The translations under genes and the position numbers were made by a program. A stretch of 64,000 nucleotides of DNA, from assembly GCA_965214745.1 (NCBI GenBank), contig OZ243978.1:2807554-2871553 (forward strand), written 5' to 3'. Origin of the DNA: Dehalococcoidia bacterium (GTDB taxonomy: Bacteria > Chloroflexota > Dehalococcoidia > Lucifugimonadales > UBA1123). How positions within the stretch are numbered: the stretch's first letter is position 1; the number at the start of each line of letters is the position of its first letter. The notes beneath the pieces were generated by a model. It did not search any database. It was not told the origin of the DNA and worked only from the letters and a program-made list of their open reading frames with translations. Shown here piece after piece: positions 1,011 through 57,167 of this stretch.

Positions 1011-2144
1011 CTACGCCAAGACGCGCTCGAACACGTACCGCCCTACGTCTCGGTTTTCCTCGAACGCGAACCCATCGAAATCGCCGCCATAGCCGATTAT
1101 CGGCACGTCCTGTTCGTGCGCCGATGCGTGGGAGCGCAGCCCGACGCCCGCGCCCGTGTCGTCCCAAGACCCCATTATGGACTTGGGACCGAACACCGTA
1201 TCGGCGTCGCCCGTAACCACTATGTCGCCGATGCGCTCGTAGTTCAGCCGCAGTTCGTCCGCCGCCTGCCGCCGCGTGTAGACGCGCTCGACGCCGCTAG
1301 TCTCGCGCAATGCGCCCGCCGCCGCGTCCGCGGCTGAGTCGTCGTCTAGGTAGACGAACATGCACCCGCCGAGGTTGTTGTGGTGCGCCACGTACCTATC
1401 CTTGATTATCGGAACCACCGTCGCCCGAACGCCGCTTTGCGCCAGCGCGTCTTCCAAGTCCACCATCCGCGTCTTGGCGTTCATGCCGTGATCCGCCGTC
1501 AGCAGCAGCGTGGCGTCGGGCTGAGCCTCCATCATCTCGCCTATGGCGTCATCCATTATAGAGACGTGCCGCTGAGACTCCTCCGCGTCAGGCGGGTACG
1601 TGTGCATCGCGTAGTCGGTCGTCGATATATACGCTACGTCCGCGCGTTCCATCTTCATGGCGAGCGCGGCGGCGCGGATCGCCCAGCCGTTTACTTCGAG
1701 AGAGTATATCGGCGGAGGCTCGCCAACGCCCTCCACCGCCCATCGCGGCGGACGCTCCGACGATATGGCGCGGCTTGCGCCGTCCGACAGCAGCGTTCGC
1801 AGCTTGTCTTTCGACGTGGACAGCAGCGTTCGCGCGCCTGCGCGAGCGGCGCGCTGGAAGAACGTCTCCGCGAGGATGTCCGCGCCCGATTCCATGTACA
1901 CGCCCTCGCCCGTCTCGCGCTCGACTCGGTAGTTCGAGCTTATGCCATGCTCGGACGGATAGCGCCCCGTGAGTATCGACACGTTGTTGACGTTGGTTAC
2001 GGACGGCATCATAGCTTTGCCGGTAACGTGAAACCCGCCGCGCGCAAGCGCGCTCAGGTTCGGAGCGTCGCACGCCGCTAGGTAGTCAGGGTCCAGCCCG
2101 TCGACAGTGATGATGATTGTTGCGCCCAGCATGGCTTCCCCCAC
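1011..2144 (-). CDS. Alkaline-phosphatase-superfamily hydrolase (phosphonoacetate hydrolase / nucleotide pyrophosphatase-like)
   Basis: N-terminal IIITVDGLDPDYL...PNL...MPSVTNVNNVSILTG nucleophile region, STTDYAMH and LLTADHGMN metal-site motifs. Length 377 aa. Confidence 0.6.
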   Translation of the reverse strand: MGEAMLGATIIITVDGLDPDYLAACDAPNLSALARGGFHVTGKAMMPSVTNVNNVSILTGRYPSEHGISSNYRVERETGEGVYMESGADILAETFFQRAARAGARTLLSTSKDKLRTLLSDGASRAISSERPPRWAVEGVGEPPPIYSLEVNGWAIRAAALAMKMERADVAYISTTDYAMHTYPPDAEESQRHVSIMDDAIGEMMEAQPDATLLLTADHGMNAKTRMVDLEDALAQSGVRATVVPIIKDRYVAHHNNLGGCMFVYLDDDSAADAAAGALRETSGVERVYTRRQAADELRLNYERIGDIVVTGDADTVFGPKSIMGSWDDTGAGVGLRSHASAHEQDVPIIGYGGDFDGFAFEENRDVGRYVFERVLA

Positions 2145-2395: not shown

Positions 2396-3658
2396 ATGAA
2401 AGATTCGGAAACACAGACCCGCCCGCGCAAGTTCGGCTGGGCGCGCAAGACGCTGCTAGCGCTGCTGGCGCTGGCGCTGCTGCTGCCGCGCTCGGACGGC
2501 GTTCACATCACGCCGGCAGAGCGCATCGCCTTCGAGCATCTATTCTCGCTCGCGGAGTGGGAGGCGGTGAACTTCCCGGGCAAGTGGCTGCACCTGCTGA
2601 CATACCTAGTTCCCGGTCGGAAGCCGTCGCGCGAGGAGCGCATCGCCATCGTCTCCGATTACCTCGACACGGTGCGGCGCGCGAACAAGGAGCGTAGACG
2701 GCTGGAGGGCGCGGCGCAGCTTCGCGGCTTCCGCGCGGGCGGCGCGAGCGCGAAGGCGGAGACGCTTACGGACGACTACCTGCAAGAGCTTCAGGCGCGC
2801 GCGCGCGAACTGCGCCCGGAGGCGGAGGAGGCTATCGAGGCGGAGATAGCAGCCGTCGTCGACGGCGCGGGGCTGGGTTCGCGGCTCGGCATCGTCTGGC
2901 CTCCCGTGGACATACGGCTGAGCGATCCGCCCACGCTGCTCGTGCTGTCGCCGCGCGACGACATAAACATGGTAGGCGCGGTGTTCTTGGACGCGGACAT
3001 CGAGCCGTTCGAGCGCGACGACGTGGAAAAGCGAGTGTACGGCGAGCTTGGCTACGCCGCCTACGTGGACGACATCGCGGGGCTGGCGACGTATCCCAAC
3101 ATGGTGTCGGACGCGCATTCGACGAGGCACATCTTGCGAACCGCCGCGCACGAGTGGCTTCACGCATACTGGCTGTTCCACCCGTTCGGCAGAAACTACT
3201 TCGCATCCGAGGAGATGACCACGCTGAACGAGACCGCCGCCACGCTCGCGGGCAACGAGCTGGGCGACATCGTCTTCGAGCGCATGGGCGGAGACCTTTC
3301 CGAGAACGCGCGCCGCTACGCCGCCGAAAGCCGCGTCAACCCGCGCTTCACCGCATTCATGCGCGAGACGCGTCTGGAAACGGAACGGCTGCTGAGCGAT
3401 GGCGAGATAGACGCGGCGGAAGAGTACATGCGAAAACGCCAATGGGAGCTGCGGCTGCGCGGATACTACATCCGAAAGCTCAACCAAGCCTACTTCGCCT
3501 TCCGGGGGCGCTACGCCGACAGCCCCGCGTCGCTAAGCCCCATCGGCGAGCGTATGCGCGAGCTGCGCTCCACCACGTCGGACGTGGGCGAGTTCATCCG
3601 AGAAATCTCCAAAGTATCCACGCCAGCCGAATTCGAAGCGCTGCTGGAGGGGAGATAG
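2396..3658 (+). CDS. Membrane-anchored hypothetical protein with HExxH motif (putative Zn-metallopeptidase)
   Basis: N-terminal hydrophobic anchor (TLLALLALALLLP). Single HEWLH motif (RTAAHEWLHAYW). I recognise no family. Confidence 0.45.
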   Translation: MKDSETQTRPRKFGWARKTLLALLALALLLPRSDGVHITPAERIAFEHLFSLAEWEAVNFPGKWLHLLTYLVPGRKPSREERIAIVSDYLDTVRRANKERRRLEGAAQLRGFRAGGASAKAETLTDDYLQELQARARELRPEAEEAIEAEIAAVVDGAGLGSRLGIVWPPVDIRLSDPPTLLVLSPRDDINMVGAVFLDADIEPFERDDVEKRVYGELGYAAYVDDIAGLATYPNMVSDAHSTRHILRTAAHEWLHAYWLFHPFGRNYFASEEMTTLNETAATLAGNELGDIVFERMGGDLSENARRYAAESRVNPRFTAFMRETRLETERLLSDGEIDAAEEYMRKRQWELRLRGYYIRKLNQAYFAFRGRYADSPASLSPIGERMRELRSTTSDVGEFIREISKVSTPAEFEALLEGR

Positions 3659-3663
3659 CATAG

Positions 3664-3698
3664 ATTTACAGGATATGCGGGATGGACAGTGGTAATTT
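3664..3698. repeat. Dispersed GGAT-phased intergenic repeat (REP-like), copy
   Basis: ATTTACAGGATATGCGGGATGGACAGTGGTAATTT lies between convergent genes. It is 28/35 identical to the reverse complement of 23052-23086. Confidence 0.6.
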
Positions 3699-3741
3699 CA
3701 TGCGGGTCGCACACCCGTCGAATCCCGAAAATCATGCGAAT

Positions 3742-4863
3742 CTATATAGAAAGCCCCATAAGGCGGTTGAGGTTCGCATAGCGCGCCGGGTCTAGGTCGC
3801 GACCGGTGAAGGCTGGGTAGTCCGGCGCGTAGCGGTGCGTTCTGAAGATGGCGTTGCTGGGGTTGCGTCCGCCGCTGTCGGGCGCGAAGAACGGAATGAT
3901 GTATTCCCACACGATTTCGCCGCGATTGGTAACCTCGAACAACCGCCCGTGCGCGCCCTCGCATATGAGCGTATTGCCGTTCGGCAGTCTGTCCGCGCCG
4001 CTGATGTACGAGCTGAAGAACGACACCGGCGGGCTGCCTTCGTAGCTCCAAGCTATTTCGTTCGTCTCGCGGTCCACCTCGACCACGCGGGAGGCGGCGC
4101 GGTTTCGGGAATGCGAGCCGTTGTCGAAGACAAGTATGTTGCCCGAATCCAGCTCGGTGGCGTGGTGCTGGTGTCCTAGCTCGCCATCCCCCCAGCGCCA
4201 AATCAAGCCGCCCGTCTCCCGCGAGACGATAGCCACCGCGCTCGTGCTGCGAAAGCTGAGCAGGAAATCGCCGGACTTGGTGATGTGAATGGAATTGGCG
4301 TGAGTCCACTCGCGTCGCCCCTCCAGCGGGCAGATAACGTTGTCTTCTATGGAGAGCCGCTCCCAAACTCGCCATTCGCCCGTCGTCTCGCCGTCCGCGT
4401 CTATTTCGCGTATCGCGTCGCCCAGCATGTGGATCGGGTCTTCTGGCGTTCTGTATCCGCCGCGGACGCGCGCCGATACGTCCGCGGGCATCTCTTCCCA
4501 GCGCAGATAAACCGTCTCGCCCGTGAGCGTCCGCTCGTAGTCGTGGTGCATCCACGGGTCTCGATGCTCCCACAGCTTCACGCCATCCCAGCTCAGCTCG
4601 ACTATCGAGCCGCCAGAGCCGCCAAGCCCGCGAGTGCGCTCGAAGTCCGACGGGAGCGGCGTCCGCCCCAGCAGGTTGCCGTTGGGGAGCAGCGTCGCGT
4701 ATGTCAGCCCCTCGCGATACTCCCAGCGGTGGCAGACGCGCCCTTCCATGTCGAGAAGCGCCGCGAACTTGCCAGAGTTGGCGAACACCAGCGTATATCC
4801 CTTGAAGGAGAACATCGGGGAATGATGAATCAACCCGACGGGGTGATGTATGGACCAGCCCAA
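3742..4863 (-). CDS. Arylsulfotransferase (ASST)-like beta-propeller protein
   Basis: Repeated NGN(L/T)L and WE(Y/H) blades, MHHDYE, and C-terminal LPNGNTLICEG...GEIVWEY typical of ASST-family propellers. TTG start at 4863 preceded by GCAGGAGC. Confidence 0.6.
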   Translation of the reverse strand: MGWSIHHPVGLIHHSPMFSFKGYTLVFANSGKFAALLDMEGRVCHRWEYREGLTYATLLPNGNLLGRTPLPSDFERTRGLGGSGGSIVELSWDGVKLWEHRDPWMHHDYERTLTGETVYLRWEEMPADVSARVRGGYRTPEDPIHMLGDAIREIDADGETTGEWRVWERLSIEDNVICPLEGRREWTHANSIHITKSGDFLLSFRSTSAVAIVSRETGGLIWRWGDGELGHQHHATELDSGNILVFDNGSHSRNRAASRVVEVDRETNEIAWSYEGSPPVSFFSSYISGADRLPNGNTLICEGAHGRLFEVTNRGEIVWEYIIPFFAPDSGGRNPSNAIFRTHRYAPDYPAFTGRDLDPARYANLNRLMGLSI

Positions 4864-4904
4864 GATAAGCTCCTGCGTCTTGCGCGCGCTTTAGGCAGCG
4901 CGGC

Positions 4905-5753
4905 TTACAGCTCCAGAGGCGTATCCGCGCGGTTCGCCCACTCGCCCATCGAGCCGTCATAGTTGCGCGTGCGGTCGTAGCCTAGCAGCCGCAGCGTGAA
5001 CACTCCGTGCGCCGCACGGATGCCTCCCTGTCAATAGGTGATTATGTTCTTATCCGGCGTCGCGCCTACCGCCTCCAGCATCTCCCGAAGCTCGTCCGCC
5101 GGCTTGAACAGGCGGTGTCGGTCTTCCGTAATCAGGTTCAGCCATTCGAGGTGAACCGCGCCCGGAATCCTCCCCGCGCGCGTGTTGCCCCTGTCGGTCG
5201 AGCCATCCCACTCACCATCCGAGCGGACGTCTAAGAACACCGTGTCCGGATCGCCCACGCGCGCCACGCCGTAGTCGAGCGTGCATACCAGCGAGTCGTC
5301 CGCGCGAGGCGTGAAGGTCGCGTCATCTACGGGCGGCGGTCGGTCGATAGACGTCGGCTTGCCCTCGTCGAACCACTTCTTCCAGCCGCCGTTCAGCACC
5401 TTCACGTTGGCGTGCCCGTAGTAGTTCAAGACCCACCAGAAGCGCGTCGAGTAGAGGCTGCCGGAGTTGTCGTAGGCGACTACGAGCGTATCGTCGCCGA
5501 TGCCCATCTCTTCCATCAGCGCCTTCATGACGTCCGGCTCCGCCACGAGCGGATACTCGCGCGGCGCGGACGGGTAATCGGGATGCTTGATGTAGTGGTG
5601 AACGCGGATGCCAACGGCGTTCTTGATATGCGCGCGCAGGTAAAGCTCGAAGTCGTCGCAGTCTACGACGCGAACGTTCGGGTCATCGATATGCTCCGCG
5701 AGCCAATCGGTGGACGCAAGCAGTTCGGGGCGGGCGTAGTCGGAGGCGGTCAT
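4905..5753 (-). CDS. Two-domain rhodanese (thiosulfate/3-mercaptopyruvate sulfurtransferase-like) with in-frame TGA at the catalytic Cys position; candidate selenocysteine
   Basis: The ORF track ends at TGA 5033-5031 after ...DKNIITY. The same frame continues QGGIRAAHGVFTLRLLGYDRTRNYDGSMGEWANRADTPLEL to TAA 4907-4905. The active-site loop C-x-G-G-x-R and the C-terminal YDGS.GEW motif lie only beyond the TGA. A hairpin at 5020-5004 follows. AGGAG SD lies before ATG 5753. Confidence 0.6.
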
Positions 5754-5859
5754 GGCGTATCTCCTGTGGTGGTGGGTTGGCGTGGGGCAATCGGCCGCTA
5801 GAGGGTTCGCTGTCTACGTCAGCTTGTCGATTCGCCAGAGTCTCGATCAGCTCCCATAG

Positions 5860-5871
5860 CGCGGACGTCAC
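5860..5871. repeat. 12-bp direct repeat CGCGGACGTCAC (left copy)
   Basis: Identical 12-mer at 6084-6095. The two copies bracket a lower-GC segment of about 224 bp. Confidence 0.6.
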
Positions 5872-6095
5872 TTCGGCGCAATGACCTCTGCGTCTTCCAG
5901 AATTCGGTACGCTTTCAGGATGAATCGGGGACCATTGTCCAACAATCTACGAACATGAGATTCTATGAAATCGACTATGCCTCCCGCCATGCGATTGCCG
6001 GAGACCCTAGACGGCTTCATCCATAATATATCCGAATCGGCTCGCGAACGATAGTGTTGCAAGCCAGCCCCGCGCATCCGGCTCGCGGACGTCAC
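5868..6095 (-). CDS. Hypothetical small protein (uncertain)
   Basis: 75-codon frame starting at a GTG that overlaps the Fic stop (GTGA). Lower GC than the flanks. No recognisable domain. Internal ATGs give products of 40-50 aa. Confidence 0.3.
   Translation of the reverse strand: MTSASRMRGAGLQHYRSRADSDILWMKPSRVSGNRMAGGIVDFIESHVRRLLDNGPRFILKAYRILEDAEVIAPK
6084..6095. repeat. 12-bp direct repeat CGCGGACGTCAC (right copy)
   Basis: Identical to 5860-5871. Overlaps the Fic stop codon. Confidence 0.6.
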
Positions 6096-7258
6096 AGCGG
6101 CTCAGTTCCCTCGTTGAGAATGGCGATATAGCGGTCGTATGCGAAGAGCCTGCCCCTGCTCCTACCCGTAATCTCGCGGGCAACGCCCTGCCCAACTAGA
6201 AACCGCATGGCTGAGGATGCGGCGGGGAAGGAAAGATTCGCGCGGGCGGAAGCCTGTTTTATAGACAGTATGGGCATCTCCCTCAGCGCGTCGTACGCTC
6301 GCAGAACGGATCCTGCGCTCCTACCCGCTCGCACTCCGATTTCCGCGCGGTCAGACTCGAACAGCTTCACCAGCCTGTTGGTAGCCCAAACCGCGCCTTC
6401 GGCTGTGATTTTCACCCCTTCGAGGAAGAACGCGAGCCACTTTTCCCAGTCTCCGCTCTCTCGCACGTAATTCAACAAGTCGTAGTATTCATTCCGATGC
6501 TGCTTGAAGTACAAGCTCAGGTATAGCATCGGCTCGGTCAAGACTCGCCGCGCAACTAGCAGGAATGTAATGAGCAGCCGCCCGACACGCCCGTTCCCAT
6601 CCAAGAATGGGTGTATAGTCTCGAACTGCGCGTGGACAAGCCCCGCCCGTATCAGCGTTGGCAACCCGTCGTCCGAGGCGTGTAGAAAGCGCTCCAACGC
6701 ACCCATACAATCGGAAACGGCGGTGTGCGGAGGCGGCACGAAGGCGGCGTTGCCGAGGCGAGAACCGCCAATCCAATTCTGAGAGCGACGGAACTCGCCG
6801 GGCGACTTGTCGGCGCCTCTCCCGCTAGACAGCAGGACGTAGTGAATCTCGCGGATCAGCCGATTGGATAGCGGAAAGCCATTCTCCAATCGCCGCAGCC
6901 CGTGTTCCAACGCATCCACATAGTTCGAGACTTCGACGACGTCGTCGAGCGGAACGCCGGGGGCTTCTTCCAACTCGAACATGAGTAGATCGGACAGCGA
7001 CGATTGAGCGCCCTCTATCTGGGAAGATAGCGCCGCTTCCTTCCGCACGTAAGAGTAGATCAAGAGCGCTTGGTCTGGCAGGAGCGTCGAAATGGCGTCC
7101 AACCGCCCAACCGCGAGAGTCGCCTCCTCGAGCGTCTGCTGAAGCGAACCGTTCAACCGCAAGCCAGGGACCGGTGGCAGCGGATGCGGCGAGAACGCGC
7201 GAACCGTCTCGCCGCCGTAGCTCGATACCGCGTATTCCCCTATTTCTTCGCGCCGCAT
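6092..7258 (-). CDS. Fic family protein (AMPylase-type) with intramolecular inhibitory helix and C-terminal winged-HTH
   Basis: Fic motif HPFLDGNGRVGRLL. N-terminal SSQIEG matches the [ST]xxxE[GN] inhibitory motif. The C-terminal SIKQASARANLSFPAASSAMRFLVGQGV is wHTH-like. Confidence 0.85.
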   Translation of the reverse strand: MRREEIGEYAVSSYGGETVRAFSPHPLPPVPGLRLNGSLQQTLEEATLAVGRLDAISTLLPDQALLIYSYVRKEAALSSQIEGAQSSLSDLLMFELEEAPGVPLDDVVEVSNYVDALEHGLRRLENGFPLSNRLIREIHYVLLSSGRGADKSPGEFRRSQNWIGGSRLGNAAFVPPPHTAVSDCMGALERFLHASDDGLPTLIRAGLVHAQFETIHPFLDGNGRVGRLLITFLLVARRVLTEPMLYLSLYFKQHRNEYYDLLNYVRESGDWEKWLAFFLEGVKITAEGAVWATNRLVKLFESDRAEIGVRAGRSAGSVLRAYDALREMPILSIKQASARANLSFPAASSAMRFLVGQGVAREITGRSRGRLFAYDRYIAILNEGTEPL

Positions 7259-10595: not shown

Positions 10596-10640
10596 GCAGG
10601 ATCTACGGGATGAGCGGGATGGAGGATGGATAGGATGAGC
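10596..10640. repeat. GGAT-rich repeat cluster (REP-like family)
   Basis: GCAGGATCTACGGGATGAGCGGGATGGAGGATGGATAGGATGAGC has six GGAT words in 45 nt. It overlaps the dipeptidase RBS and start. Confidence 0.5.
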
Positions 10641-11630
10641 GAGCGCCCTGACGTATACGAGCGGTCCATCGTGTTCGATGGGCTGAACGTGAGCAACTGG
10701 GAGAGCGACGCGGTCTATCGCAGCCTTGCGGCGGGCGGCGTTACGGGCATGAACGCCACCGTCGCCATATGGGAAGGCTTCTCGCAGACGATGGACAACA
10801 TCGCGGCGTGGCTGCGCCGCTTCGAGACGCGCTCCGACACGCTGACGCAGGTGAAGACAGCCGCCGATCTCGTCGAGGCGAAGCGGCTCGGCAAGACGGG
10901 CGTCGCGCTCGGCTGGCAGAACGCATCTCCCATCGGCGCGGACTTGAACCGGCTCGCGCTGTTCCACGCGCTCGGCGTCCGCATCGTCCAGATCACCTAC
11001 AACGAGCGCAACCTGGTCGGCAACGGCTGCTACGAGCGGACGGACGACGGGCTGAGCCGCTTCGGGCAAGACGTGGTGCGCGAGATGAACCGGCTCGGCA
11101 TATTGGTAGACCTTTCGCACGTGGGCGACCGCACCACGCTGGAGGCGGCGGAGCTTTCGGACGCGCCCGTCGCCTGCACCCACGCCAACGCCAGAGCGCA
11201 TTTCGACCACCCGCGCAACAAAACCGACGACGCGCTGAAGCTCATCGCCGAGCGCGGCGGGGTGATAGGCGCGAACGCCTTCCCGCCGTTCCTGCCCGGC
11301 GGGTTCGAGTCCACCGTCGGCGAATACGTGGACGCCATGGAAGACCTCGTGGAGCGCGTCGGCATAGACCACGTGGGCATAGGAACCGACTACACGCAGC
11401 GACAGCCCAAGGCGTTCTTCGATTGGATATTCGCCCAGCAAGGGACGAAGCCCACGCCCGCGTCCGACTCCTACCCCGACGACCCGCCCCACCCTCGCGG
11501 CATGGAAACGCCGGACAGCCTATCCAACGTAGCCGCCGAGCTGCTCGCCCGCGGCTATTCGGAAAACGACGCCGCGAAGCTGCTAGGCGGCAACTGGATG
11601 CGGCTGTTCTCGCGCGTCTGGGGCGGGTGA
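10635..11630 (+). CDS. Membrane dipeptidase (peptidase M19, renal dipeptidase family)
   Basis: VFDGLNVSNW, LSHVGD, CTHANARA and HVGIGTDY motifs of M19 dipeptidases. ATG 10635 has GGAGG 9 nt upstream. In-frame ATG 10626 is an alternative start. Confidence 0.8.
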   Translation: MSERPDVYERSIVFDGLNVSNWESDAVYRSLAAGGVTGMNATVAIWEGFSQTMDNIAAWLRRFETRSDTLTQVKTAADLVEAKRLGKTGVALGWQNASPIGADLNRLALFHALGVRIVQITYNERNLVGNGCYERTDDGLSRFGQDVVREMNRLGILVDLSHVGDRTTLEAAELSDAPVACTHANARAHFDHPRNKTDDALKLIAERGGVIGANAFPPFLPGGFESTVGEYVDAMEDLVERVGIDHVGIGTDYTQRQPKAFFDWIFAQQGTKPTPASDSYPDDPPHPRGMETPDSLSNVAAELLARGYSENDAAKLLGGNWMRLFSRVWGG

Positions 11631-11661: not shown

Positions 11662-12327
11662 TCAGTGCCCCCCGCCGTCTTCCGGCGCGTCGTCTTCGGC
11701 GTCTATGCGCTCCGGGCAGTCTACGGACGTTATCTCGCACATGCCGCATTCCTGCGCGCTGGGGACTTTGCGGGCGGGCGAGTCGGCGGCTACGCGCCCT
11801 ATGAGCGCGTAGAGGCGCCGCATGAACACGTCGTTCATCCTGTCCGCGGGGATTTCGGCTTCTCGCCCGTCGCCGTATATCAGCCGCCCGTCGAACGCCA
11901 CGCCGCGATATTGGCCTGTGCGCGGCATGGCGTACATATATATCAAGAGCTGCGCCTCGTCGGATAGGCGTCGCCTGCCCGTCTTGAGGTCGTACACCGT
12001 CGCGCGTCCGTCCGCGTCGCCGCTTGGGTCTACGGACACCAGATCGGGCTTGCCGCCCAGCACCGCGCCGGACCTGCCGCGCAGAGAGAAGCGGTTCTGA
12101 TTCTCGGTGTACACCGTCAGACCGTCCGCTTCCAGCTTGTCGCGCGTGTCGTTCAGAAGCGCGGTGTGGTCCATGCTCCACGTCGCCTGATCGAAGTCGT
12201 CCGGCGCCTTGTCGTAGGCTATGTAGTGCGCCCTGAACCAGCTAGCCCACTCGCAGGAGTTCTCCCCCACCAGCAGCCGCGAAAGCCATGTCGTCCAAAT
12301 GTAGGGACCCGTTCTCTCTACAGCCAT
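11662..12327 (-). CDS. PD-(D/E)XK nuclease, Cas4/RecB-like with four-Cys cluster
   Basis: GKPDLVSVD...VYDLKTG...QLLIYMY nuclease core. One N-terminal Cys (ENSCEW) plus C-terminal CGMCEITSVDC, as in Cas4/AddB-type Fe-S nucleases. Confidence 0.6.
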   Translation of the reverse strand: MAVERTGPYIWTTWLSRLLVGENSCEWASWFRAHYIAYDKAPDDFDQATWSMDHTALLNDTRDKLEADGLTVYTENQNRFSLRGRSGAVLGGKPDLVSVDPSGDADGRATVYDLKTGRRRLSDEAQLLIYMYAMPRTGQYRGVAFDGRLIYGDGREAEIPADRMNDVFMRRLYALIGRVAADSPARKVPSAQECGMCEITSVDCPERIDAEDDAPEDGGGH

Positions 12328-36619: not shown

Positions 36620-39010
36620 TCAGATCATCTCCGCCCACGTTGCGCCGCTGCCGCCGCGCTCCCGCGGCTCTTGCCCGAAGTCGCCTACCGAGCGATGGCG
36701 GCGCAGACGCTCGCGCACCATGTTTCTGAGCGCGCCCGTGCCGCGCCCATGTATCACGCGCACTTTGGAAAGCCCGTCGCGCATCGCATGATCTAGGAAC
36801 TCTTCCAGCTCGATCTCCGCGTCCGCGGCGCGCCTGCCGCGAATGTCAAGCTCGTCGCTTGCGAGCGCGGGCGCGAGCCGCGCGCTGTACGCTGGCGACG
36901 GGTCAGGGCTTTCGTCCGCACCGTCCGCCGATTCCCGCTCGATGCGCGACAGCCGGTGAAGCTCGACGCTCACGCGGACGCGACCGATGGCGACTTCCAC
37001 CTCCTCGGTGTGACTGTCCATGGACACGATGCGCCCGCTAAGCCCCATGCCGCGCACGAATACGGTGTCGCCGACTGAGAGCGGTCGAGCGGCGAGCGCG
37101 GGCGGTCTGGCGGGCGCCGGCTGGGGAGGCTCGACTGCGGCGAGCCGTTGGCGAACGCGACGAACGCGACGCGCGGCTGCGGACGCGGATTCGGCGGGCG
37201 CTCCCCAATCCAGCGACGCTTCCACGCTATCCAGCTTTCGGCTCGCGTCGCGCGTTCTTCGCGCGATGTCGCGTCGGGCGGCGTCCAGCATATCGTCGCG
37301 GTGGCTGACGATGTACTCCAGCTGCTCTACCAGTTCGCGACGCAGACTCTCAGCCTCCGCCCTGTCGCGCTCCGCGTTCTCGACGCTCGCTTGCAGCCGC
37401 TGCCGCTCGCGCTGAAGCTCGCTCAGCCAGTCCTCGAACAGCAGGTGGCGCGGCTCCATAAGCGAGCGGGCGCGTTCGAGAACGCTCGCGGGAAGCCCCA
37501 GCCGCTCGGCTACCGCCATAGCGTAGCTGCGCCCCGGCGCGCCTATCGTTATCTCATAGGTGGGTTCGAGCGTGTCGGGATCCAGCTCGAAGCTGGCGTT
37601 AGCCATGCGGGGGGATGTCTCCGCGAACGCGGCTACGCTGCGATGGTGGGTGGTTGCGATGGTCGATACGCCCGTGTCCGCGAGATGCGCGAGAATGGAC
37701 TTGGCAAGCGCCGAACCCTCTTCGGGATCGGTGCTTGCGCCAATCTCGTCGAGAAGAACGAGCGAATCGGCTGCGGCGTGTCGCAAAATTCTGACGAGGC
37801 TTCGGATGTGCGAGCCGAACGTGGATACGGATTCGGCTATGCTCTGCTGATCTCCGATGTCCGCGAAGACGCCGTCGAACACGGGGAGCGCGCTTCCCTC
37901 GTCCGCCGCAATCTGCAATCCGCATTGGTGCATGAGCGCGGCTATGCCGACTGTTTTCATGGCGACGGTCTTGCCGCCGGTGTTGGGTCCGGTGATGACG
38001 AGCGCGCGCCAGTCGGGTCCGACGCTGACAGTGAGCGGCACGGCATCGCGCCCAAGCAGCGGGTGGCGGGCGCGGATGAGGCGGAGGCGCTGCCCGCCGC
38101 TGACAGGAACGGGCGCCGAGGCGCCGAGGCTGAGCGCGTACCTCGCTCGGGCGAGCGCGAAATCCACCTTGGCGGTGGTCTCGTTCGCGCCGCGAATATC
38201 TTGCGCCACGCCGCCGACTAGCTCCGACAGATCTCGCAGAACGCGCGCGACCTCGCGCTCCTCCTCCAATGCAAGCTCTCGCCATTCGTTGCACAGCTCT
38301 ACCGTCGAGAACGGCTCGACGAACACGGTGGCGCCTGTGTTGGAAGCGTCGTGGACGATGCCCGCGACGCGGCGGCGGCGCTCGGCTTTGACCGGCACCA
38401 CGAGCCTGTCGGCGCGAACCGATATGACCGGATCCTGAAGCGAGTCGCGCGCGGCGTCCGACTCTATGAAGCGCTGAAGCGAGTCCGTAACCCGCTCGTA
38501 GGCGTCGCGCACCTGGGAGCGGAGCGCGCGCAGCGTAGGCGTCGCGTCGTCGACGACCTCGCCGCGCTGCCCAATCTTGGCGCGAATCTGCCGCTGAAGC
38601 TCGCGCAGATCCGGAACCAGCCCGCCAAGCTCGGCCATGAGCGGAGCTACGTTTGCCGCGCCGGCAAGCGCGCGACGCAGGCGGCGATGCACCTCCAGCG
38701 TGCCGGCTATGGCGAGCAGCTCGCCGCCTGTGAGCGCTCCGCCAAGCTCGGCGCGGGTTACGGATTGCGACGTGTCGGCGTCGGACGAGAGGCTGAGATC
38801 GCCTATCTCGTCCAGCAGAGCGCGCGCGTCAGCGGTCTCGCGCTGAAGCCGCGCCACCTCATGCGGGTCTACCGACGGCGTGATGGAGAGCGCCATCGCG
38901 CGCGCCTCGTAGAAGGTGGCGTGACCCGACAGCCGAGCGCGAATCTCGTCGAAGTCGAGCAGGGCTAGCGACGCTTGCTGAAGCGCGTCGCGCTCGGCGG
39001 CGTCGTCCAT
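36620..39010 (-). CDS. mutS2: Endonuclease MutS2 (MutS domain V ATPase plus C-terminal Smr)
   Basis: Walker A ITGPNTGGKTV, DEIGASTDPEEG, C-terminal Smr (ELDIRGRRAADA...VRVIHGRGTGALR). Likely start at ATG 39010. Confidence 0.9.
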   Translation of the reverse strand: MDDAAERDALQQASLALLDFDEIRARLSGHATFYEARAMALSITPSVDPHEVARLQRETADARALLDEIGDLSLSSDADTSQSVTRAELGGALTGGELLAIAGTLEVHRRLRRALAGAANVAPLMAELGGLVPDLRELQRQIRAKIGQRGEVVDDATPTLRALRSQVRDAYERVTDSLQRFIESDAARDSLQDPVISVRADRLVVPVKAERRRRVAGIVHDASNTGATVFVEPFSTVELCNEWRELALEEEREVARVLRDLSELVGGVAQDIRGANETTAKVDFALARARYALSLGASAPVPVSGGQRLRLIRARHPLLGRDAVPLTVSVGPDWRALVITGPNTGGKTVAMKTVGIAALMHQCGLQIAADEGSALPVFDGVFADIGDQQSIAESVSTFGSHIRSLVRILRHAAADSLVLLDEIGASTDPEEGSALAKSILAHLADTGVSTIATTHHRSVAAFAETSPRMANASFELDPDTLEPTYEITIGAPGRSYAMAVAERLGLPASVLERARSLMEPRHLLFEDWLSELQRERQRLQASVENAERDRAEAESLRRELVEQLEYIVSHRDDMLDAARRDIARRTRDASRKLDSVEASLDWGAPAESASAAARRVRRVRQRLAAVEPPQPAPARPPALAARPLSVGDTVFVRGMGLSGRIVSMDSHTEEVEVAIGRVRVSVELHRLSRIERESADGADESPDPSPAYSARLAPALASDELDIRGRRAADAEIELEEFLDHAMRDGLSKVRVIHGRGTGALRNMVRERLRRHRSVGDFGQEPRERGGSGATWAEMI

Positions 39011-39071
39011 GGGCTGGCGCTGGTCAATCGGGTAGTTCACGGCGTCATTGTAGCAGGCATCGACCCAACGG

Positions 39072-40700
39072 CTAGAACTCCACTGCGCCATCCACCGCGA
39101 GCAGGCGGAGCGCGTCCAGCATGGCGCTTGCCGCCATGCGCCGCTGGTCGGGCGATGGAATGGCGGCTGTCAGGCTGTCGAGTATCCGCAACGTCTCCCT
39201 ACGCCCGTCTATGCCGGCGGCGAGCGCGGCTACGGGTTTGCTCAGGGGCAAGCCGTCGGGACGCTGCGGGCTGACGAGCGCGTCGCTCCACGCGAATTCG
39301 CCATCCGCGAATATGGGCATTCGCTCGACGCGCGCGCCGCGCGCGAGACGCGGGACGGAGCGCAGAACGCGCTCGGCGTCCAGCGCGTTTCGCCTTGCGC
39401 CGCGCTCGGACTCGACAGCGTTTATGGCGGCTATCGTTTCGGGCGGGAGCTCCCCACGCTCCAGAACCGCGCGCTCGTAACCGCGCGGCGGCTGGCCGGC
39501 GACGGCGCGAACGAACGCCGCGCGCGCCGTCTCGTCTTCGGCCGCGCCCAGCAGACGGCGCGCCTCCCAGAAGTACGAGTCCACCGCGCGGTTGCTGGCG
39601 TAGAAGAGCGCGGCAAGCTCGCGGAAGTGGGCGTATTCGGTGCGATATAGACGCTGGTATACGCGGGCGGCGGATTCGCGCATGGATGCGTCGCGCGAGA
39701 CGGCGCGGATGTATGCCGCCGCCATGACCGCGGACATCATCGCTAGATGCACGCCGGACGAGAAGAGCGGATCTACGAAGCAAGCAGCGTCTCCGACGAG
39801 TATCCAACCGTCGCCAGCGGTTCGTTCGGAGGTGTACGACCAATCCTTGACGACGCGCGGCGCGGCTACGGATCGGGCGGCGCACAGCATCCGCCGCGTT
39901 CGGGGGGCGGCGTCCAGCTGTCGGCGGAAGTATCGCGGAACGCTGAGCGCGGCTATATCGTCCCGCCCTCGCTCGGAATCCACAACGACGCCGACGCTCG
40001 CCAGACCGCCGGACAGCGGGATATTCCACACCCAGCCGTTTTCGTAGGATTCGATGAAGATGTTGGTTTCGTCCGGTTCGGGCAGCCGCTCTCCGCCCTC
40101 GAAGTAGCCGTAGACCGCCATGTTGCGGAAGCGGTCGTCCCACCGCCGCAAGCCGAGCGCGCGCCCGACGAGCGCGGATTGTCCGCTGGCGTCGATAACC
40201 CACTCGGCGGCCGCCACGCGCGCGGCGCCGTCGGCGGAGCGGTAGCGGACGCCCGAAACCCGCTCGCCGTCGCGCAAGACGGCGGTGACGGCGCACCGCT
40301 CGCGCACGTCCGCGCCGCTCGATCGCGCGTTGTCCAGCAAGATGGCGTCGAACTCGGCGCGGTGAACCTGATAGGCGTGCGGGTAGGCGCGGTTCGTCTC
40401 CGCGAACCGCCAGCTCCAAGCGTCGGGTTCGCGCCCCCAAAGCATCGTCGCGCCGTACTTCTTGGGGAAGCCGGCGGCTGCCACCCTATCCAGAACGCCA
40501 AGTTCTTCCAGCACCGGCATGGACGCGGGCAAGAGCGATTCGCCCACGTGGTCGCGCGGGAAGCGCTCGCGTTCTAGCAGCGTAACCGAGAAACCGTCTC
40601 GCGCGAGCAGCGCGGCGGCGGTAGAGCCGCCCGGACCGCCGCCGATGACCACGACGTTCGAGCGGGTCACTCCCCTCGCTCGTCCGAAAGCTCTTGCCAT
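39072..40700 (-). CDS. Flavin-dependent halogenase-like FAD oxidoreductase
   Basis: VVVIGGGPGGS FAD fold. GWVWNIP matches the WxWxIP halogenase signature. FVDPLFSSGVHLA. The start is either ATG 40700 or GTG 40670, which overlaps the GH32 stop (GTGA). Confidence 0.65.
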   Translation of the reverse strand: MARAFGRARGVTRSNVVVIGGGPGGSTAAALLARDGFSVTLLERERFPRDHVGESLLPASMPVLEELGVLDRVAAAGFPKKYGATMLWGREPDAWSWRFAETNRAYPHAYQVHRAEFDAILLDNARSSGADVRERCAVTAVLRDGERVSGVRYRSADGAARVAAAEWVIDASGQSALVGRALGLRRWDDRFRNMAVYGYFEGGERLPEPDETNIFIESYENGWVWNIPLSGGLASVGVVVDSERGRDDIAALSVPRYFRRQLDAAPRTRRMLCAARSVAAPRVVKDWSYTSERTAGDGWILVGDAACFVDPLFSSGVHLAMMSAVMAAAYIRAVSRDASMRESAARVYQRLYRTEYAHFRELAALFYASNRAVDSYFWEARRLLGAAEDETARAAFVRAVAGQPPRGYERAVLERGELPPETIAAINAVESERGARRNALDAERVLRSVPRLARGARVERMPIFADGEFAWSDALVSPQRPDGLPLSKPVAALAAGIDGRRETLRILDSLTAAIPSPDQRRMAASAMLDALRLLAVDGAVEF

Positions 40701-50647: not shown

Positions 50648-51436
50648 CTACCGCCCCTCGAACGCCGGCTCGCGCCGTTCTAGGAACGCGCGGACGCCCT
50701 CGGCGCGGTCTTCGGTGGCGCCGGCGGCGGCGCTCGCCTGCCCTTCCATCCACAGCTGATCTTCGAGCGCGCGGGTGTGGGCGGAATACGCCAGCTTCTT
50801 GGTGAGCGCGTGCGCGACGGACGGACCGCGGGCGAGCCGCTGAGCCAAATCCATGGCGCGCTCGGCAAGCTCGTCGTCCGGCGAGACGCGGCTGACCAGC
50901 CCAATGCGCTCGGCTTCGGCGGCGTCTATGATGTCACCCGTGTACATCAGTTCCATTGCGCGAGACATGCCCACCGCGAGCGGCAGGAGCTGCGTGCATC
51001 CATAGTCGGGCGACAGCGCGCGCTTGGCGAATATGGCGGAAAACTTGGCGCTCTCGGCCGCGATGCGTATGTCGCATGCGAGCGCAAGCCCAAGCCCCGC
51101 GCCGACCGCCGCTCCGTTGACGGCGGCTACGGTCGGGCGCGGGAACCGCTGAATCAGCAGCGACGGGAATCCGAGCGGCATCCCCTTCTTGCCGAGCGTC
51201 TCGGTTCCCGGCGTATGCCCCTGCCCTTTGGGGGCGGTGAGGTCCGCGCCCGCGCAGAACCCGCGCCCCGCGCCGGTAATCAGCAGCGCGCGAACGCCGT
51301 CCTCGCGGCAAGAGCGGATTGCCTCCTCTATGCCGTCTATCATCGAGCGGTCGATGGCGTTCAGCTTCTCCGGGCGGTTCAGCGTCACTACGCCGACGTC
51401 GCCCACTCGCTCGTTCAACACGCTGGGGTTGGACAT
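50648..51436 (-). CDS. Enoyl-CoA hydratase/isomerase (crotonase) family protein
   Basis: VGVVTLNRPEKLNAI, FCAGADL, GAAVGAGLGLALACD. ATG 51436 with GGAG SD. Confidence 0.88.
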   Translation of the reverse strand: MSNPSVLNERVGDVGVVTLNRPEKLNAIDRSMIDGIEEAIRSCREDGVRALLITGAGRGFCAGADLTAPKGQGHTPGTETLGKKGMPLGFPSLLIQRFPRPTVAAVNGAAVGAGLGLALACDIRIAAESAKFSAIFAKRALSPDYGCTQLLPLAVGMSRAMELMYTGDIIDAAEAERIGLVSRVSPDDELAERAMDLAQRLARGPSVAHALTKKLAYSAHTRALEDQLWMEGQASAAAGATEDRAEGVRAFLERREPAFEGR

Positions 51437-51487
51437 GTCTCGCTCCATATCATCATCATCATCGGGTTCGGGAAGGTTCGCATGGAT

Positions 51488-52519
51488 TCACCAAGACGGA
51501 TCCAAGTCTTCCGCGTCGTTCCTAGTTACGCGGCGCTGCTCCGCGCCGTCGGGCTTCATTATGAAGATGTCCGCGTCGCCGTCGAGGCGGCTTACGAAGG
51601 CTATATCCTTGCCGGTGGGCGACCACGTAGGCTGAATATCGTCTACTTTGTTGGATGTGAGGCGCTTCATGTTGGAGCCGTCGCGCCCGACTACGTATAT
51701 CTCCGGGTTGCCGTCCTGATCAGAAACGAACGCTATGAGCCTGCCGTTCGGAGACCACGCTATATCGAACACGTCGCCGCTCGTTTCGGTTACGCGCCGC
51801 TTGTCCGCGCCGTCCGCGTTCATGACGAACACGTCGGATCCGCCGTCCACTTCGGATACGAACGCTATCTGCCTCGAGTTGGGCGAAAAGCGCGGCTCGG
51901 AGTCCGCGCCGTCGCTAAGCCGATACTCGTTCACCCCGTCTGGGCTGGCGACGTATATGCCGCTCCAATCGTCTTCCAGCGCCGAGAACGCAATCGCGCT
52001 GCCGGTCTTCGCCCAGCTTCCAATGTCCAAGCCCGCTATGGACGTGAGGTTTGCGGACTCCGCGCCGTCGGCGCGCGTCGTGATTGCGATGGACTCTTCC
52101 GCGTTCTCCACCAGAAGCGCTAGGCGGCGGCTGTCGGGGCTCCAGATGTGGCTAACGACGTCGCGTTCCGCCTCGTAAGCTCGAACTCGGTTCTCGCCTC
52201 TCGCGTCTATCACGTCCACCGACACCCCACCGCCGCTGTCGGAGTCCGACAAGAAGGCGATTAGCCTGCGGTTTGGCGAGACGACTGGGGATCGCTCGTC
52301 CTGCGGCGACTTGGTGAGGTTCAGCGTGTTTTCGCCCGACCTGTCCGTGGCGAATATGTCGAAGCTGCCCGCCGCGTCCGATCTGTATATGATAGGCGCG
52401 GACTCTGCGGAAGAGCATCCAGCGGCGAGCGTGACTAGCGCGATCGTCAGGACGGCGAGCGGCGTCAGAGCGCGCCGTTTTGGAACGCATGCGGTTTCGA
52501 TGCTGAGCGGATTTCGCAC
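51488..52519 (-). CDS. TolB-like PD40 beta-propeller lipoprotein
   Basis: Lipobox LAAGCSS. Repeated PD40 blades (P.WSP(D/N)G..IAF.S...G..D(I/V)). GTG 52519 is preceded by AAGGAGG at 9 nt. Confidence 0.75.
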   Translation of the reverse strand: MRNPLSIETACVPKRRALTPLAVLTIALVTLAAGCSSAESAPIIYRSDAAGSFDIFATDRSGENTLNLTKSPQDERSPVVSPNRRLIAFLSDSDSGGGVSVDVIDARGENRVRAYEAERDVVSHIWSPDSRRLALLVENAEESIAITTRADGAESANLTSIAGLDIGSWAKTGSAIAFSALEDDWSGIYVASPDGVNEYRLSDGADSEPRFSPNSRQIAFVSEVDGGSDVFVMNADGADKRRVTETSGDVFDIAWSPNGRLIAFVSDQDGNPEIYVVGRDGSNMKRLTSNKVDDIQPTWSPTGKDIAFVSRLDGDADIFIMKPDGAEQRRVTRNDAEDLDPSW

Positions 52520-52757
52520 GCCGAATATCCTCCTTCGCGCGCCTGCGCTATCGCAGCCGCCCATCCGATCGAGCGGGCGGCACAAGCCAATATACCATTG
52601 CGAGCGAGCGCGGGCGTAGGAAGCCGCGCGGTTCGGTCTGCGATTTCGGCGAGAGCGCTTCCCCCGCCCCGCTCCCCTCGCCGCCTCGCATCCCGCCTGC
52701 GGCGGAATGACGATTTGGCGCTGTGGGCGCAGCCACTAGCGAGTTGGCGACAATGCT

Positions 52758-52891: not shown

Positions 52892-54592
52892 GTGAAAAGC
52901 GAATTTCTCATTGCGCTGACTCAGCTGGCGGCCGAGCGCAACCTGCCGCGCGAAGTGGTGCTTTCCGCCATCGAGGCGGCGCTCATTTCAGCGTACCGCA
53001 AGGATGCGGAAACTAGCGGACAGAACATATCCGTCAAGCTGGACCCCAGCAGCGGAGAGATTACCGCCTACATCCTCAAGACCGTCGTCGAAGAGGTGAT
53101 CGACGAGGTAACCGAGATCTCGCTCGTAGAAGCGCGCGCGAAATACCCCAACGCGCATCTGGATCAGGTCATCGCAACCGAGCGCATGCCGCGGAGCGCG
53201 GGGCGCATCGCGGCGCAGACGGCTAAGCAGGTAGTGCTTCAGCGCCTGCGCGAAGCCGAGCGCGATCTGGTCTATCAGGAGTTCGTCGAGAGAGTCGGCG
53301 AGGTGTTCTCGGTAACCGTCCAGCGCGTAGAGCCGCGCCACATCGTGGTGGACTTGGCGCGCGGCGAAGCCATCCTGCCCATATCGGAACAGATGCCCAA
53401 CGAGCGCTACCGGCAGGGGCAGAAGTTCAAGGTGCTGCTCCGCTCAGTCGATCGCACCGCGCGAGGCACTGAGATAATCGTCTCCCGAGCCGATCGAGAC
53501 CTGCTCCGCCGCCTGTTCGAAATGGAAGTGCCGGAGATATTCAACGGCGCGGTCGAGATGGTCGCCGTGGCGCGCGAAGCCGGCTCCAGAAGCAAGGTAG
53601 CCGTCCGCGCCAGACAAGACGGCGTGGACCCCGTCGGCTCGTGCGTCGGGCTGCGAGGCGTCAGAATCCAAAACATCGTCAACGAGCTTCAGAACGAGAA
53701 GGTGGACGTTCTAGAGTGGCACCGCGACACCGCTAGGTTCATCGCCAACAGCCTCAACCCCGCGCAGGTGCTTCGCGTGGAGCTAGACCCGTACACCGAG
53801 ACGGCTATCGCGGTGGTGCCGGACAATCATCTGTCGCTCGCCATCGGCAAAGAGGGGCAAAACGCGCGGCTGGCGGCGAAGCTGACTGGCTGGAACGTGG
53901 ACATCAAGAGTTCCGCCGAAGCCGAGGCGCTGGCGCTGGAACGCGCCCGACTCGCGGCTGAGCGGGCTGCGGAAGAGGCGCGCAGGAGAGAGGAAGAGGC
54001 GCGAATCGCGGCCGAAGAGGAAGCTGCGGCAGCCGTCGCAGCCGCCGAAGAAGTCGTCGCCGCGTCCAAGCCATCCCCTGCCGAGGAAGCGGAGCCGGAT
54101 AGCGAGCAGACGCCGGAAGAGGCGCCCGCCATTCCCGACCCGGTCGCCGCTCAGCTCGAAGCGGAGCGCGTCGCAGCCGAGATTGCGCGGCGCGAGGCGG
54201 CGGAAGAAGCGGAGTTGCTCGCACAACTCGAACGCGAAGAAGCCGAACGGCGCGAACGCGAAGAGCGCGAAGCGGCGGAAGAAGCGGAGTTGCTCGCACA
54301 ACTCGAACGCGAAGAAGCCGAACGGCGCGAACGCGAAGAGCGCGAAGCGGCGGAAGCCGCCGCCGCGCCCGAACTGACGTCGCTGCGAGACCTGCCCGAA
54401 CACGTGTGGGCTATCCCCACCGCGCGCGGACAGTCCGAGCCGAGCCGGATTCGGTTCGCCGAAGACATAGACGGTCTGCGAGGCGGCGTTACCGTGCGGA
54501 GGTCGAGACGATCCGGCGGCGCGGACGGCGCGCCTCCGACTCCGACTCGCGGACGGCGACGGCGCGGCAGATCGGTCAGGAGACGACGCTAG
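52892..54592 (+). CDS. nusA: Transcription termination/antitermination factor NusA with a tail of about 220 aa, E/A/R-rich and ending Arg-rich
   Basis: NusA N-terminal, S1 and two KH domains (to about residue 345), then a low-complexity tail ending RRSRRSGG...RGRRRRGRSVRRRR. GTG start with GGGAGG SD. Confidence 0.9.
   Translation: MKSEFLIALTQLAAERNLPREVVLSAIEAALISAYRKDAETSGQNISVKLDPSSGEITAYILKTVVEEVIDEVTEISLVEARAKYPNAHLDQVIATERMPRSAGRIAAQTAKQVVLQRLREAERDLVYQEFVERVGEVFSVTVQRVEPRHIVVDLARGEAILPISEQMPNERYRQGQKFKVLLRSVDRTARGTEIIVSRADRDLLRRLFEMEVPEIFNGAVEMVAVAREAGSRSKVAVRARQDGVDPVGSCVGLRGVRIQNIVNELQNEKVDVLEWHRDTARFIANSLNPAQVLRVELDPYTETAIAVVPDNHLSLAIGKEGQNARLAAKLTGWNVDIKSSAEAEALALERARLAAERAAEEARRREEEARIAAEEEAAAAVAAAEEVVAASKPSPAEEAEPDSEQTPEEAPAIPDPVAAQLEAERVAAEIARREAAEEAELLAQLEREEAERREREEREAAEEAELLAQLEREEAERREREEREAAEAAAAPELTSLRDLPEHVWAIPTARGQSEPSRIRFAEDIDGLRGGVTVRRSRRSGGADGAPPTPTRGRRRRGRSVRRRR
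54197..54356 (+). repeat. Perfect 75-bp tandem duplication (2.1 copies) inside the nusA tail
   Basis: The unit GCGGCGGAAGAAGCGGAGTTGCTCGCACAACTCGAACGCGAAGAAGCCGAACGGCGCGAACGCGAAGAGCGCGAA starts at 54197 and 54272. It encodes AAEEAELLAQLEREEAERREREERE twice. Confidence 0.9.
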
Positions 54593-54635
54593 CCCGCCGT
54601 CGCGGGCGGACGGCTGCGGAAGAAGAGGCGCGCGC

Positions 54636-54917
54636 GTGGCGAAGAAGCGCAGACATACGCCTATGCGAAGTTGCGTATCCTGCGGCGCGAAAGCCGCCAA
54701 GCGCGAGTTGCTCAGGGTGGTTTCGCCGCCGCAAGGCGCGGTGAGCGTGGACACCGGCGGACGGCTCGACGGGCGCGGCGCGTACCTGTGCGAGCGCTGC
54801 CGCAAAGCGCCGAAAGCGCTGCGGCGCGGACGGCTCGAATACTCGCTTAGAACGAAGATAGCAGAAGACGACTGGCATGCGCTGCTGAAAGCGCTGAGCG
54901 ATGATATAGACGGCTAA
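54636..54917 (+). CDS. ylxR: YlxR/DUF448 RNA-binding protein
   Basis: RSCVSCGAKAAKRELLRVV...GRGAYLCE motif. Canonical position between nusA and infB. Confidence 0.85.
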   Translation: MAKKRRHTPMRSCVSCGAKAAKRELLRVVSPPQGAVSVDTGGRLDGRGAYLCERCRKAPKALRRGRLEYSLRTKIAEDDWHALLKALSDDIDG

Positions 54918-54945
54918 CGGGAAAGAACGGAGGCGAACGCGGCAT

Positions 54946-56778: not shown

Positions 56779-56789
56779 GCTTACAACGC

Positions 56790-57167
56790 ATGACCTCCAG
56801 ACGAACAGAGCGGCTCAACTCGATAATCCGTCGCGACCTCAGCGACCTGATACGCAACGAGGTCGGAGACCCGCGCGCCGCCGGAGTCGTCAGCGTTACG
56901 CACGTGGAGACGTCCCCGGACGTTCAGCACGCGCGCGTGTACGTGAGCGTGTACGGCAGCCTGCGCGAGAAGGAAGACGCCGTAGCCGCCCTCAGCGACG
57001 CCGCGCGCTTCCTGCGCCGACAGCTGCGCGCGCGCATCCACACGCGGCAGGTGCCAGAGCTGCGGTTCATCCTCGACGAGTCGCTGGACGAGGGCAACGA
57101 GATGCTCCGCTTGCTAGACAGCATCGCCGAACAACTCCCGCCGGAAGAGGGCGCGCCCCCATCATGA
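56790..57167 (+). CDS. rbfA: Ribosome-binding factor A
   Basis: RTERLNSIIRRDLSDLI...VTHVETSPDVQHARVYVS is the typical RbfA pattern. Confidence 0.9.
   Translation: MTSRRTERLNSIIRRDLSDLIRNEVGDPRAAGVVSVTHVETSPDVQHARVYVSVYGSLREKEDAVAALSDAARFLRRQLRARIHTRQVPELRFILDESLDEGNEMLRLLDSIAEQLPPEEGAPPS

Follow-up and report, generated by a model that had tools for sequence, protein, structure and literature searches.

The 64,000-nucleotide (nt) stretch of DNA from a Dehalococcoidia bacterium analysed here (contig OZ243978.1; hereafter, the window) carries on its minus strand a gene for a two-domain rhodanese with an in-frame TGA at the position of the catalytic cysteine, closely followed by a small hairpin, and we read this gene as a predicted selenoprotein gene. 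The open reading frame (ORF) opens at ATG 5753–5751 and is annotated to end with ...PDKNIITY-TGA at 5033–5031; beyond this TGA, 41 sense codons (QGGIRAAHGVFTLRLLGYDRTRNYDGSMGEWANRADTPLEL) continue in the same frame up to TAA 4907–4905. An earlier reading of the window from its letters alone (the sequence-only reading) had proposed this read-through frame and its 282-aa product, and every coordinate that it gave is correct. Pfam finds two Rhodanese domains (PF00581 twice, E 2.8e-37) in the read-through product, in which the predicted selenocysteine (Sec), U241, heads the active-site loop UQGGIRA of the C-terminal domain and is aligned with the catalytic Cys. The GC fractions at the three codon positions of the read-through part (0.67/0.51/0.79) are coding-like. 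A scan of 3500–6200 for promoters and terminators, with E. coli-type consensus sequences, found none. The coordinates of the features, together with the most constrained codons discussed below, are collected in Table 1.

The TGA stood out because homology places it at the catalytic position. Cys occupies exactly this position in 12/12 full-length homologues (~280 aa; motif TY-C-Q.GIRA) and in the solved rhodaneses, bearing out the placement made in the sequence-only reading. The closest solved structure, the rhodanese 1UAR from T. thermophilus, is aligned over residues 6–280 (E 1.9e-47), with its Cys at U241. Taken alone, the sequence of the window is weak evidence, and the comparative data decide. 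Of its 1187 TGA triplets, 26% have 41 or more stop-free codons behind them, and 1.3% precede, in this 65%-GC window, a perfect stem of 7 bp or longer with the geometry of a selenocysteine insertion sequence (SECIS); the 71-nt region around the hairpin folds no better than shuffled sequence (z = 0.22).

One general explanation can be dealt with from the window itself. Under a variant genetic code, UGA would encode an amino acid such as Trp or Gly, a proposal that has nothing specific in its favour. TGA terminates 18 of the 54 greedy ORFs of the window, including the Pfam-verified genes for IF-2, RbfA, an ABC ATPase and Fic, all of which have the expected length when ended at TGA; these genes exclude a variant code, against which the sequence-only reading had argued from the same ordinary use of TGA, in favour of local recoding or a lesion. 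Moreover, relatives use TGA as the second stop of this very gene, and homologues have Cys, and neither Trp nor Gly, at the aligned position. The chance that a variant code accounts for the TGA is negligible.

A lone in-frame stop in a single assembly looks like an error, and the frequency with which TGA triplets of the window are followed by long open stretches by chance is compatible with a pseudogene, a nonsense mutation or a sequencing or consensus error (TGC or TGT to TGA) in an ordinary Cys-rhodanese. We therefore weigh this possibility against the relatives. When a collection of 5.8 billion proteins was searched with the read-through product, 5674 matches were returned, of which the best 120, with identities of 62–85%, were examined. 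These 120 are 238–243 aa long, apart from four outliers of 247–328 aa, with a query coverage of 82–85%, and none of them reaches beyond the TGA codon; the database names of close homologues are ‘hypothetical protein’ or ‘thiosulfate/3-mercaptopyruvate sulfurtransferase’.

The DNA behind such records tells more. We compared 80 species-representative genomes, comprising Dehalococcoidia (including SAR202), Chloroflexota metagenome-assembled genomes (MAGs), eight Candidatus Binatia and one Tectomicrobia, with protein identities of 56–88% across the 80 loci. At 79 of these loci, TGA stands at the homologous codon and is followed by QGGIRAAHG...RNYDGSMGEWAN and then by a second stop, which may be TAA, TAG or TGA, at the expected place. 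The 80th locus, from the Tectomicrobia genome KatS3mg131 (L037:10600-10900), has the same TGA and an identical hairpin, with a frame-shifting 1-nt indel ~30 nt upstream that is either an assembly error or the mark of a recent pseudogene. Six further loci from metagenomes, obtained with the closest Cys form (P0123) as query, are all TGA forms. The TGA is thus kept in 86/86 orthologous loci, as well as in three more divergent relatives (L100, L101 and L102), and the host loci span 29–67% GC. Cys occurs in none of the close relatives (56% identity or more), and identity to the nearest Cys form is only 53%. Across a large orthologue group that spans Dehalococcoidia/SAR202, Binatia and Tectomicrobia, the Sec state is fixed.

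The sequence-only reading had itself named two outcomes that would speak against Sec: TGC or TGT at the codon, pointing to a consensus error, and a truncated or decayed gene in close relatives, pointing to a pseudogene. Both comparisons came out in favour of Sec, with TGA at all 86 orthologous loci and an intact read-through frame conserved behind it. The same TGA in 86 independent assemblies from three phyla and in three divergent relatives, a downstream frame that is intact and under purifying selection, and the lack of Cys in every relative at 56% identity or above make an error or a pseudogene extremely improbable.

Selection at the codon level separates two kinds of constraint. A codon alignment of the window and 79 loci gave 147 columns that could be scored (conserved, degenerate amino acid), with a mean relative synonymous entropy of 0.80. 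Over codons 251–280, the amino acids are kept and the relative synonymous entropy is 0.57–0.98; the read-through peptide is under protein-level purifying selection. This bears on the possibility that the 240-aa truncated protein is itself functional, as a catalytically dead rhodanese-like module whose 41 downstream codons stay untranslated. Such a product is exactly what gene callers and public databases annotate, and inactive rhodanese domains exist. However, the 41 codons preserve amino acids while their synonymous sites vary, GC at their third positions (GC3) is coding-like, and the part after the TGA holds the rest of the active-site loop together with the conserved YDGS.GEW motif and is aligned to solved rhodaneses through residue 280, so we regard a functional truncated protein as very unlikely. 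With this degree of comparative conservation, neither a pseudogene, nor an assembly error, nor a functional truncated product can explain the data.

The second kind of constraint acts on nucleotides. All eight of the lowest synonymous entropies among the 147 columns fall within codons 240–250 (Table 1), and the ninth lowest in the gene is already 0.54; with ten columns scored in that stretch, the chance that all eight would land there is P ~1e-11. Free variation at the two Gly codons that separate the UGA from the hairpin (0.85 and 0.71) maps the constraint to the 17-nt hairpin and the U-UGA-C context and not to the region as a whole. At Tyr240, the TAT codon runs against the trend of the gene, which prefers TAC at other Tyr columns, and the conserved U-UGA-C context may adjust how termination and Sec insertion compete.

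The hairpin begins 10 nt 3′ of the TGA, where the sequence-only reading had seen a SECIS-like element. The published model of the bacterial SECIS (bSECIS) has an apical loop of 3–9 nt with a G at either its first or its second position, usually G then G or U, an upper stem of 4–16 bp, a distance from UGA to loop of 16–37 nt and a minimum free energy of at most −7.5 kcal/mol (PMC13188914). With its GGC loop, 7-bp stem, 17 nt between UGA and loop and −9.9 kcal/mol, the hairpin lies within all four published limits, which upholds the earlier description. In 74 distinct TGA-form sequences, 97.1% of the cells for its seven pairs are paired, versus 29–59% when the 3′ arm is slid by 1–3 nt. As a control, we used the DNA of eight Cys-form homologues, obtained by exact-protein look-ups: the Arg codon is CGC, CGA or CGT, the next two codons are varied (GCA, GCC, GCT, GCG, TCG, TCA, ACG and ACC), and no equivalent hairpin forms in any of the eight. 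The hairpin is thus kept among orthologues beyond what the protein requires, and the comparison indicates that it is a selected RNA element, frozen at synonymous sites in TGA forms only.

Where the hairpin does change, several of the changes preserve pairing. The second pair has a compensatory change from C-G to A-U in L063 and in the 29%-GC locus L085, the latter also with a G-C to G-U change. In L102, which is 38% identical, the outer pairs have changed from U-A to G-C and from C-G to G-C, one pair has been added and the loop is GUC. The main hairpin is lost in L101 (L101:1349-1400), where another stem, of 8 bp, carries a GUC loop at 25 nt from the UGA, and in L100 (L100:723-770) no canonical bSECIS was seen after the UGA; these two loci suggest SECIS turnover within the family. 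A possible lower stem, CAGGG/CCYUG, was dropped, being paired in 77% and inconsistent between sequences, and of the upper stem RNAalifold retained just five pairs. A search for further copies of the hairpin core gave two matches, both attributable to chance.

We conclude, with a probability of roughly 0.9, that the gene at 5753–4905 (minus strand) is a genuine predicted selenoprotein, a two-domain rhodanese with a catalytic Sec241 at the UGA and a conserved SECIS. The UGA lies inside a conserved ORF whose downstream part is under protein-coding selection, and it forms a Sec/Cys pair with the Cys of homologues. In the standard bacterial Sec pathway, SelB–GTP–Sec-tRNA(Sec) acts together with a SECIS hairpin. 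By analogy, the complex would bind the hairpin, with G-G at the start of its loop, as the ribosome meets the UGA and, competing with release factor 2 (RF2), would bring Sec into the A site. Translation would then proceed through QGGIRA and the final 41 residues, completing the catalytic domain; without recoding, the product would be a 240-aa protein without an active site. We infer both the incorporation of selenium at the UGA and the presence of selABCD in the source genome. In catalysis, a selenosulfide or perselenide intermediate would be expected in place of the persulfide.

Several observations weigh against this conclusion. Searches (tblastn) with E. coli SelA, SelB and SelD against the window and ~1.6 Mb of flanks of related loci gave no match for SelA or SelD, and the SelB query matched only IF-2 (window 54946–56778) and EF-Tu (related loci). 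ARAGORN found tRNA-Sec neither in the window nor in the flanks of the 86 loci; the tRNAs that it called in the window are a tRNA-Ser(GCU) and a doubtful tRNA-Met. A second selenoprotein gene was sought in the window and the flanks and none was found: a GC3 screen of the window for TGA-bridged ORFs yielded only the rhodanese and three cases of adjacent genes in the same frame, and a Sec/Cys-pair scan of the 1.6-Mb flanks gave just ordinary TGA stops and noise out of frame. The hairpin shows little covariation because it is nearly invariant, so that its support is mostly invariance and some other constraint at the nucleotide level is conceivable. No Rfam model matches the hairpin, either at gathering thresholds or at permissive E-values. 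Finally, the status of the rhodanese-related Sec family in the literature is that of a family predicted by bioinformatics only. As for the doubtful tRNA-Met call at 38596–38670 (minus strand), it lies within a long ORF (36620–39091), the Rfam tRNA model is silent there at its gathering threshold, and the call is probably a false positive.

The ten most selenoprotein-rich bacteria in the database BSepDB include two Dehalococcoidia MAGs, which have 49 and 46 such genes, and one of the two shares a MAG series named by universally unique identifiers (UUIDs) with many of the loci compared here (PMC13326102). Support for Sec machinery behind the window gene is at the level of the lineage only.

The machinery results also bear on a reading in which the UGA is read through without Sec machinery, by a near-cognate Trp- or Cys-tRNA or a suppressor tRNA, for example, which would place Cys or Trp at position 241 and make the hairpin a generic stimulator. 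Downstream hairpins can promote read-through generally, Sec machinery was found neither in the window nor in the ~1.6 Mb of related flanks, and the divergent L100 has no canonical bSECIS. Nevertheless, the hairpin has bSECIS geometry, including G-G at the loop start, and the codon specifies the catalytic nucleophile, a site at which only Cys or Sec would be functional. Low-efficiency near-cognate decoding would be a poor route to so widely conserved an enzyme, and the family is catalogued among selenoproteins in a lineage that is selenoprotein-rich. We consider read-through of this kind unlikely and retain Sec insertion as the explanation.

The precedent that the sequence-only reading had named, Sec-containing rhodanese-related sulfurtransferases in marine metagenome surveys, is real. 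In 2005, a ‘rhodanese-related sulfurtransferase’ (COG2897) selenoprotein was predicted, with three sequences, in the Sargasso Sea metagenome (PMC1088965), and the Global Ocean Sampling (GOS) survey of 2008 gives the Sec form as cd01449, with eight sequences, and COG2897, with one (PMC2398784). Reviews of 2022 and 2026 give the Sec rhodanese family as a predicted one that has PF00581 and the motif UxxG (PMC9312934, PMC13188914). The window gene agrees with this published family (COG2897/SseA type, ‘form 4’, UxxG) in being a two-domain PF00581 protein with Sec in place of the catalytic Cys, here as U-Q-G-G, and in coming from uncultured marine or environmental bacteria; the two surveys reported just a handful of sequences. 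Because architecture and motif agree, we file this PF00581/COG2897-type protein with its U-x-x-G motif in the known family, to which it would belong by domain and motif and whose listed representatives are MQG53192.1 and MCY3690685.1. Two proteins, MCI0438648.1 and MBR97913.1, were all that a cluster look-up gave, and each is named ‘hypothetical protein’.

Other rhodanese groups offer further comparisons. The Cys rhodaneses 1UAR, A. vinelandii RhdA (1E0C) and M. tuberculosis SseA (3HZU) share the fold, the length and the catalytic position, but have Cys instead of Sec and other active-site loops (CRIAERS in 1UAR versus UQGGIRA here). The NCBIfam equivalog model for the 3-mercaptopyruvate sulfurtransferase (3-MST) SseA, NF008557, scores 114.6 bits, below its cutoff of 250, marking the protein as a homologue and not as an SseA/3-MST orthologue or equivalog. 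NF041203 (rhodanese_LYCAU, the CxU form) gives a partial match of 32.3 bits against a cutoff of 115, which sets the protein apart from the CxU selenoprotein. The single-domain COG0607 forms, this CxU form and the TsoB rhodanese/DsbD fusion also contain a Sec rhodanese domain but differ in architecture and motif. No NCBIfam model covers the UQGG two-domain Sec rhodanese, which explains the truncated public records and the names that they bear.

The hairpin can likewise be set beside the bSECIS consensus (bSECISearch, Zhang and Gladyshev 2005, as given in PMC13188914), whose prototype is that of E. coli fdhF. Like the consensus element, it lies in the coding sequence directly 3′ of the UGA and has a small apical loop starting with G-G, a 17-nt spacing, a 7-bp upper stem and a stability of −9.9 kcal/mol. 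It is distinct in being minimal, at 17 nt, with a triloop and without a lower stem that convinces, in having a primary sequence that is near-invariant across phyla, and in sitting on the codons of the active-site loop.

Across the wider family, 150 representative clusters include 101 with Cys and 29 that end at the site (TGA-type). A crude neighbour-joining tree with parsimony gives at least 14 Sec/Cys switches, a figure that is indicative only, and suggests that such switches have been many.

Table 1 Features of the rhodanese locus, and the eight codons with the lowest synonymous entropies
Feature	Position	Strand	Details
Rhodanese selenoprotein coding sequence (predicted)	4905..5753	(-)	240 codons, UGA (Sec241), 41 codons, TAA; 282 aa
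Shine-Dalgarno-like AGGAG	5761..5765	(-)	7 nt 5′ of ATG; direct reading
Conserved UGA context TAT-TGA-CAG	5028..5036	(-)	4th and 8th lowest entropies of 147 columns
In-frame TGA at catalytic position	5031..5033	(-)	loop U-Q-G-G-I-R-A; TGA in all loci, Cys in homologues
Hairpin UCCGUGC-GGC-GCACGGA (candidate SECIS)	5004..5020	(-)	7-bp stem, loop GGC at 5013-5011; overlaps codons I245-G250
TAA terminating the selenoprotein	4905..4907	(-)	direct reading
Arylsulfotransferase (ASST)-family beta-propeller gene	3742..4863	(-)	TTG start, AGGAG 4874-4870, 373 aa
Codon Ala247			GCG 80/80; relative entropy 0
Codon Ala248			GCG 80/80; relative entropy 0
Codon His249			CAC 80/80; relative entropy 0
Codon Tyr240			TAT 79/80; relative entropy 0.10
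Codon Arg246			CGT 76/80; relative entropy 0.11
Codon Ile245			ATC 75/80; relative entropy 0.25
Codon Gly250			GGA 69/76; relative entropy 0.26
Codon Gln242			CAG 75/80; relative entropy 0.34

Directly downstream of the rhodanese lies the ASST-family gene that the sequence-only reading had also recognized, its TTG start at 4863 being 41 nt past the rhodanese TAA. The assignment agrees with Pfam (PF05935, 6.8e-19; PF14269, 1.1e-15), GC3 is 0.80, and the product weakly matches the PDB sulfotransferase 9KF4 (E 1.5e-10); a signal peptide is not obvious in it. In 45 of 83 informative loci, which go down to 47% identity, an ASST-like gene on the same strand follows the rhodanese gene directly, at a distance of 4–173 nt, and in five more it lies within 2 kb; it is absent in the other 33, including all Binatia, and from the Cys-form loci sampled. 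The ASST-family gene is probably an operon partner of the rhodanese, and the distribution suggests a lineage-specific two-gene unit.

More tentatively, the rhodanese and its neighbour could form a dedicated two-gene Sec-rhodanese/ASST-like module of SAR202-type Dehalococcoidia, combined with mutual constraint of RNA and protein at the active-site loop, a joint proposal that we think rather doubtful. In such a module, the selenium nucleophile would drive an undescribed sulfur or sulfuryl transfer, with the ASST-like partner taken as cytoplasmic. Since the SECIS sits on codons of the active-site loop, RNA and protein would constrain each other, and this would explain why IRAAHG and its codons are frozen across 29–67% GC.

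Beyond the ASST-like gene, a PhnA-like gene of the alkaline-phosphatase superfamily (1011–2144, minus strand; TIGR02335 at 215 bits, under the cutoff) and a 420-aa ORF without a family match (2396–3658, plus strand) are syntenic in most close relatives (L001–L026, ~70–75% identity). Just upstream of the rhodanese are a Fic/DOC-family gene (Fic_N and Fic; 6092–7258, minus strand) and an overlapping 75-aa ORF (5868–6095, minus strand). This pair is not syntenic in relatives, of which only L003 has a match, 43% identical and 7 kb off, and it may be an inserted toxin–antitoxin-like cassette. Farther away, a PD-(D/E)XK/Cas4-like nuclease-domain ORF (11662–12327, minus strand) adjoins an M19 dipeptidase gene (10626–11630), and a canonical nusA-ylxR-infB-rbfA-truB operon, which contains IF-2, occupies 52892–58093 (plus strand). 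At 50648–52735 (minus strand), an enoyl-CoA hydratase-like gene comes after, and shares the frame of, a TolB-like beta-propeller gene whose stop is TGA; the pair was rejected as a read-through candidate, being two separate genes, and a longer ORF at 50777–52123 (plus strand) is spurious, with a GC3 of 0.65.

The window gene is a new, unannotated member of an already catalogued predicted family, and the mode of Sec decoding is unchanged by it. Read as a selenoprotein gene, it would mean that its close homologues in SAR202, other Dehalococcoidia and Binatia represent an abundant enzyme that is systematically mis-annotated without its active site. The compact and highly conserved 17-nt SECIS would be a candidate for SelB recognition, and a well-supported sulfur-transfer selenoprotein is added to lineages that are known for organosulfur metabolism.

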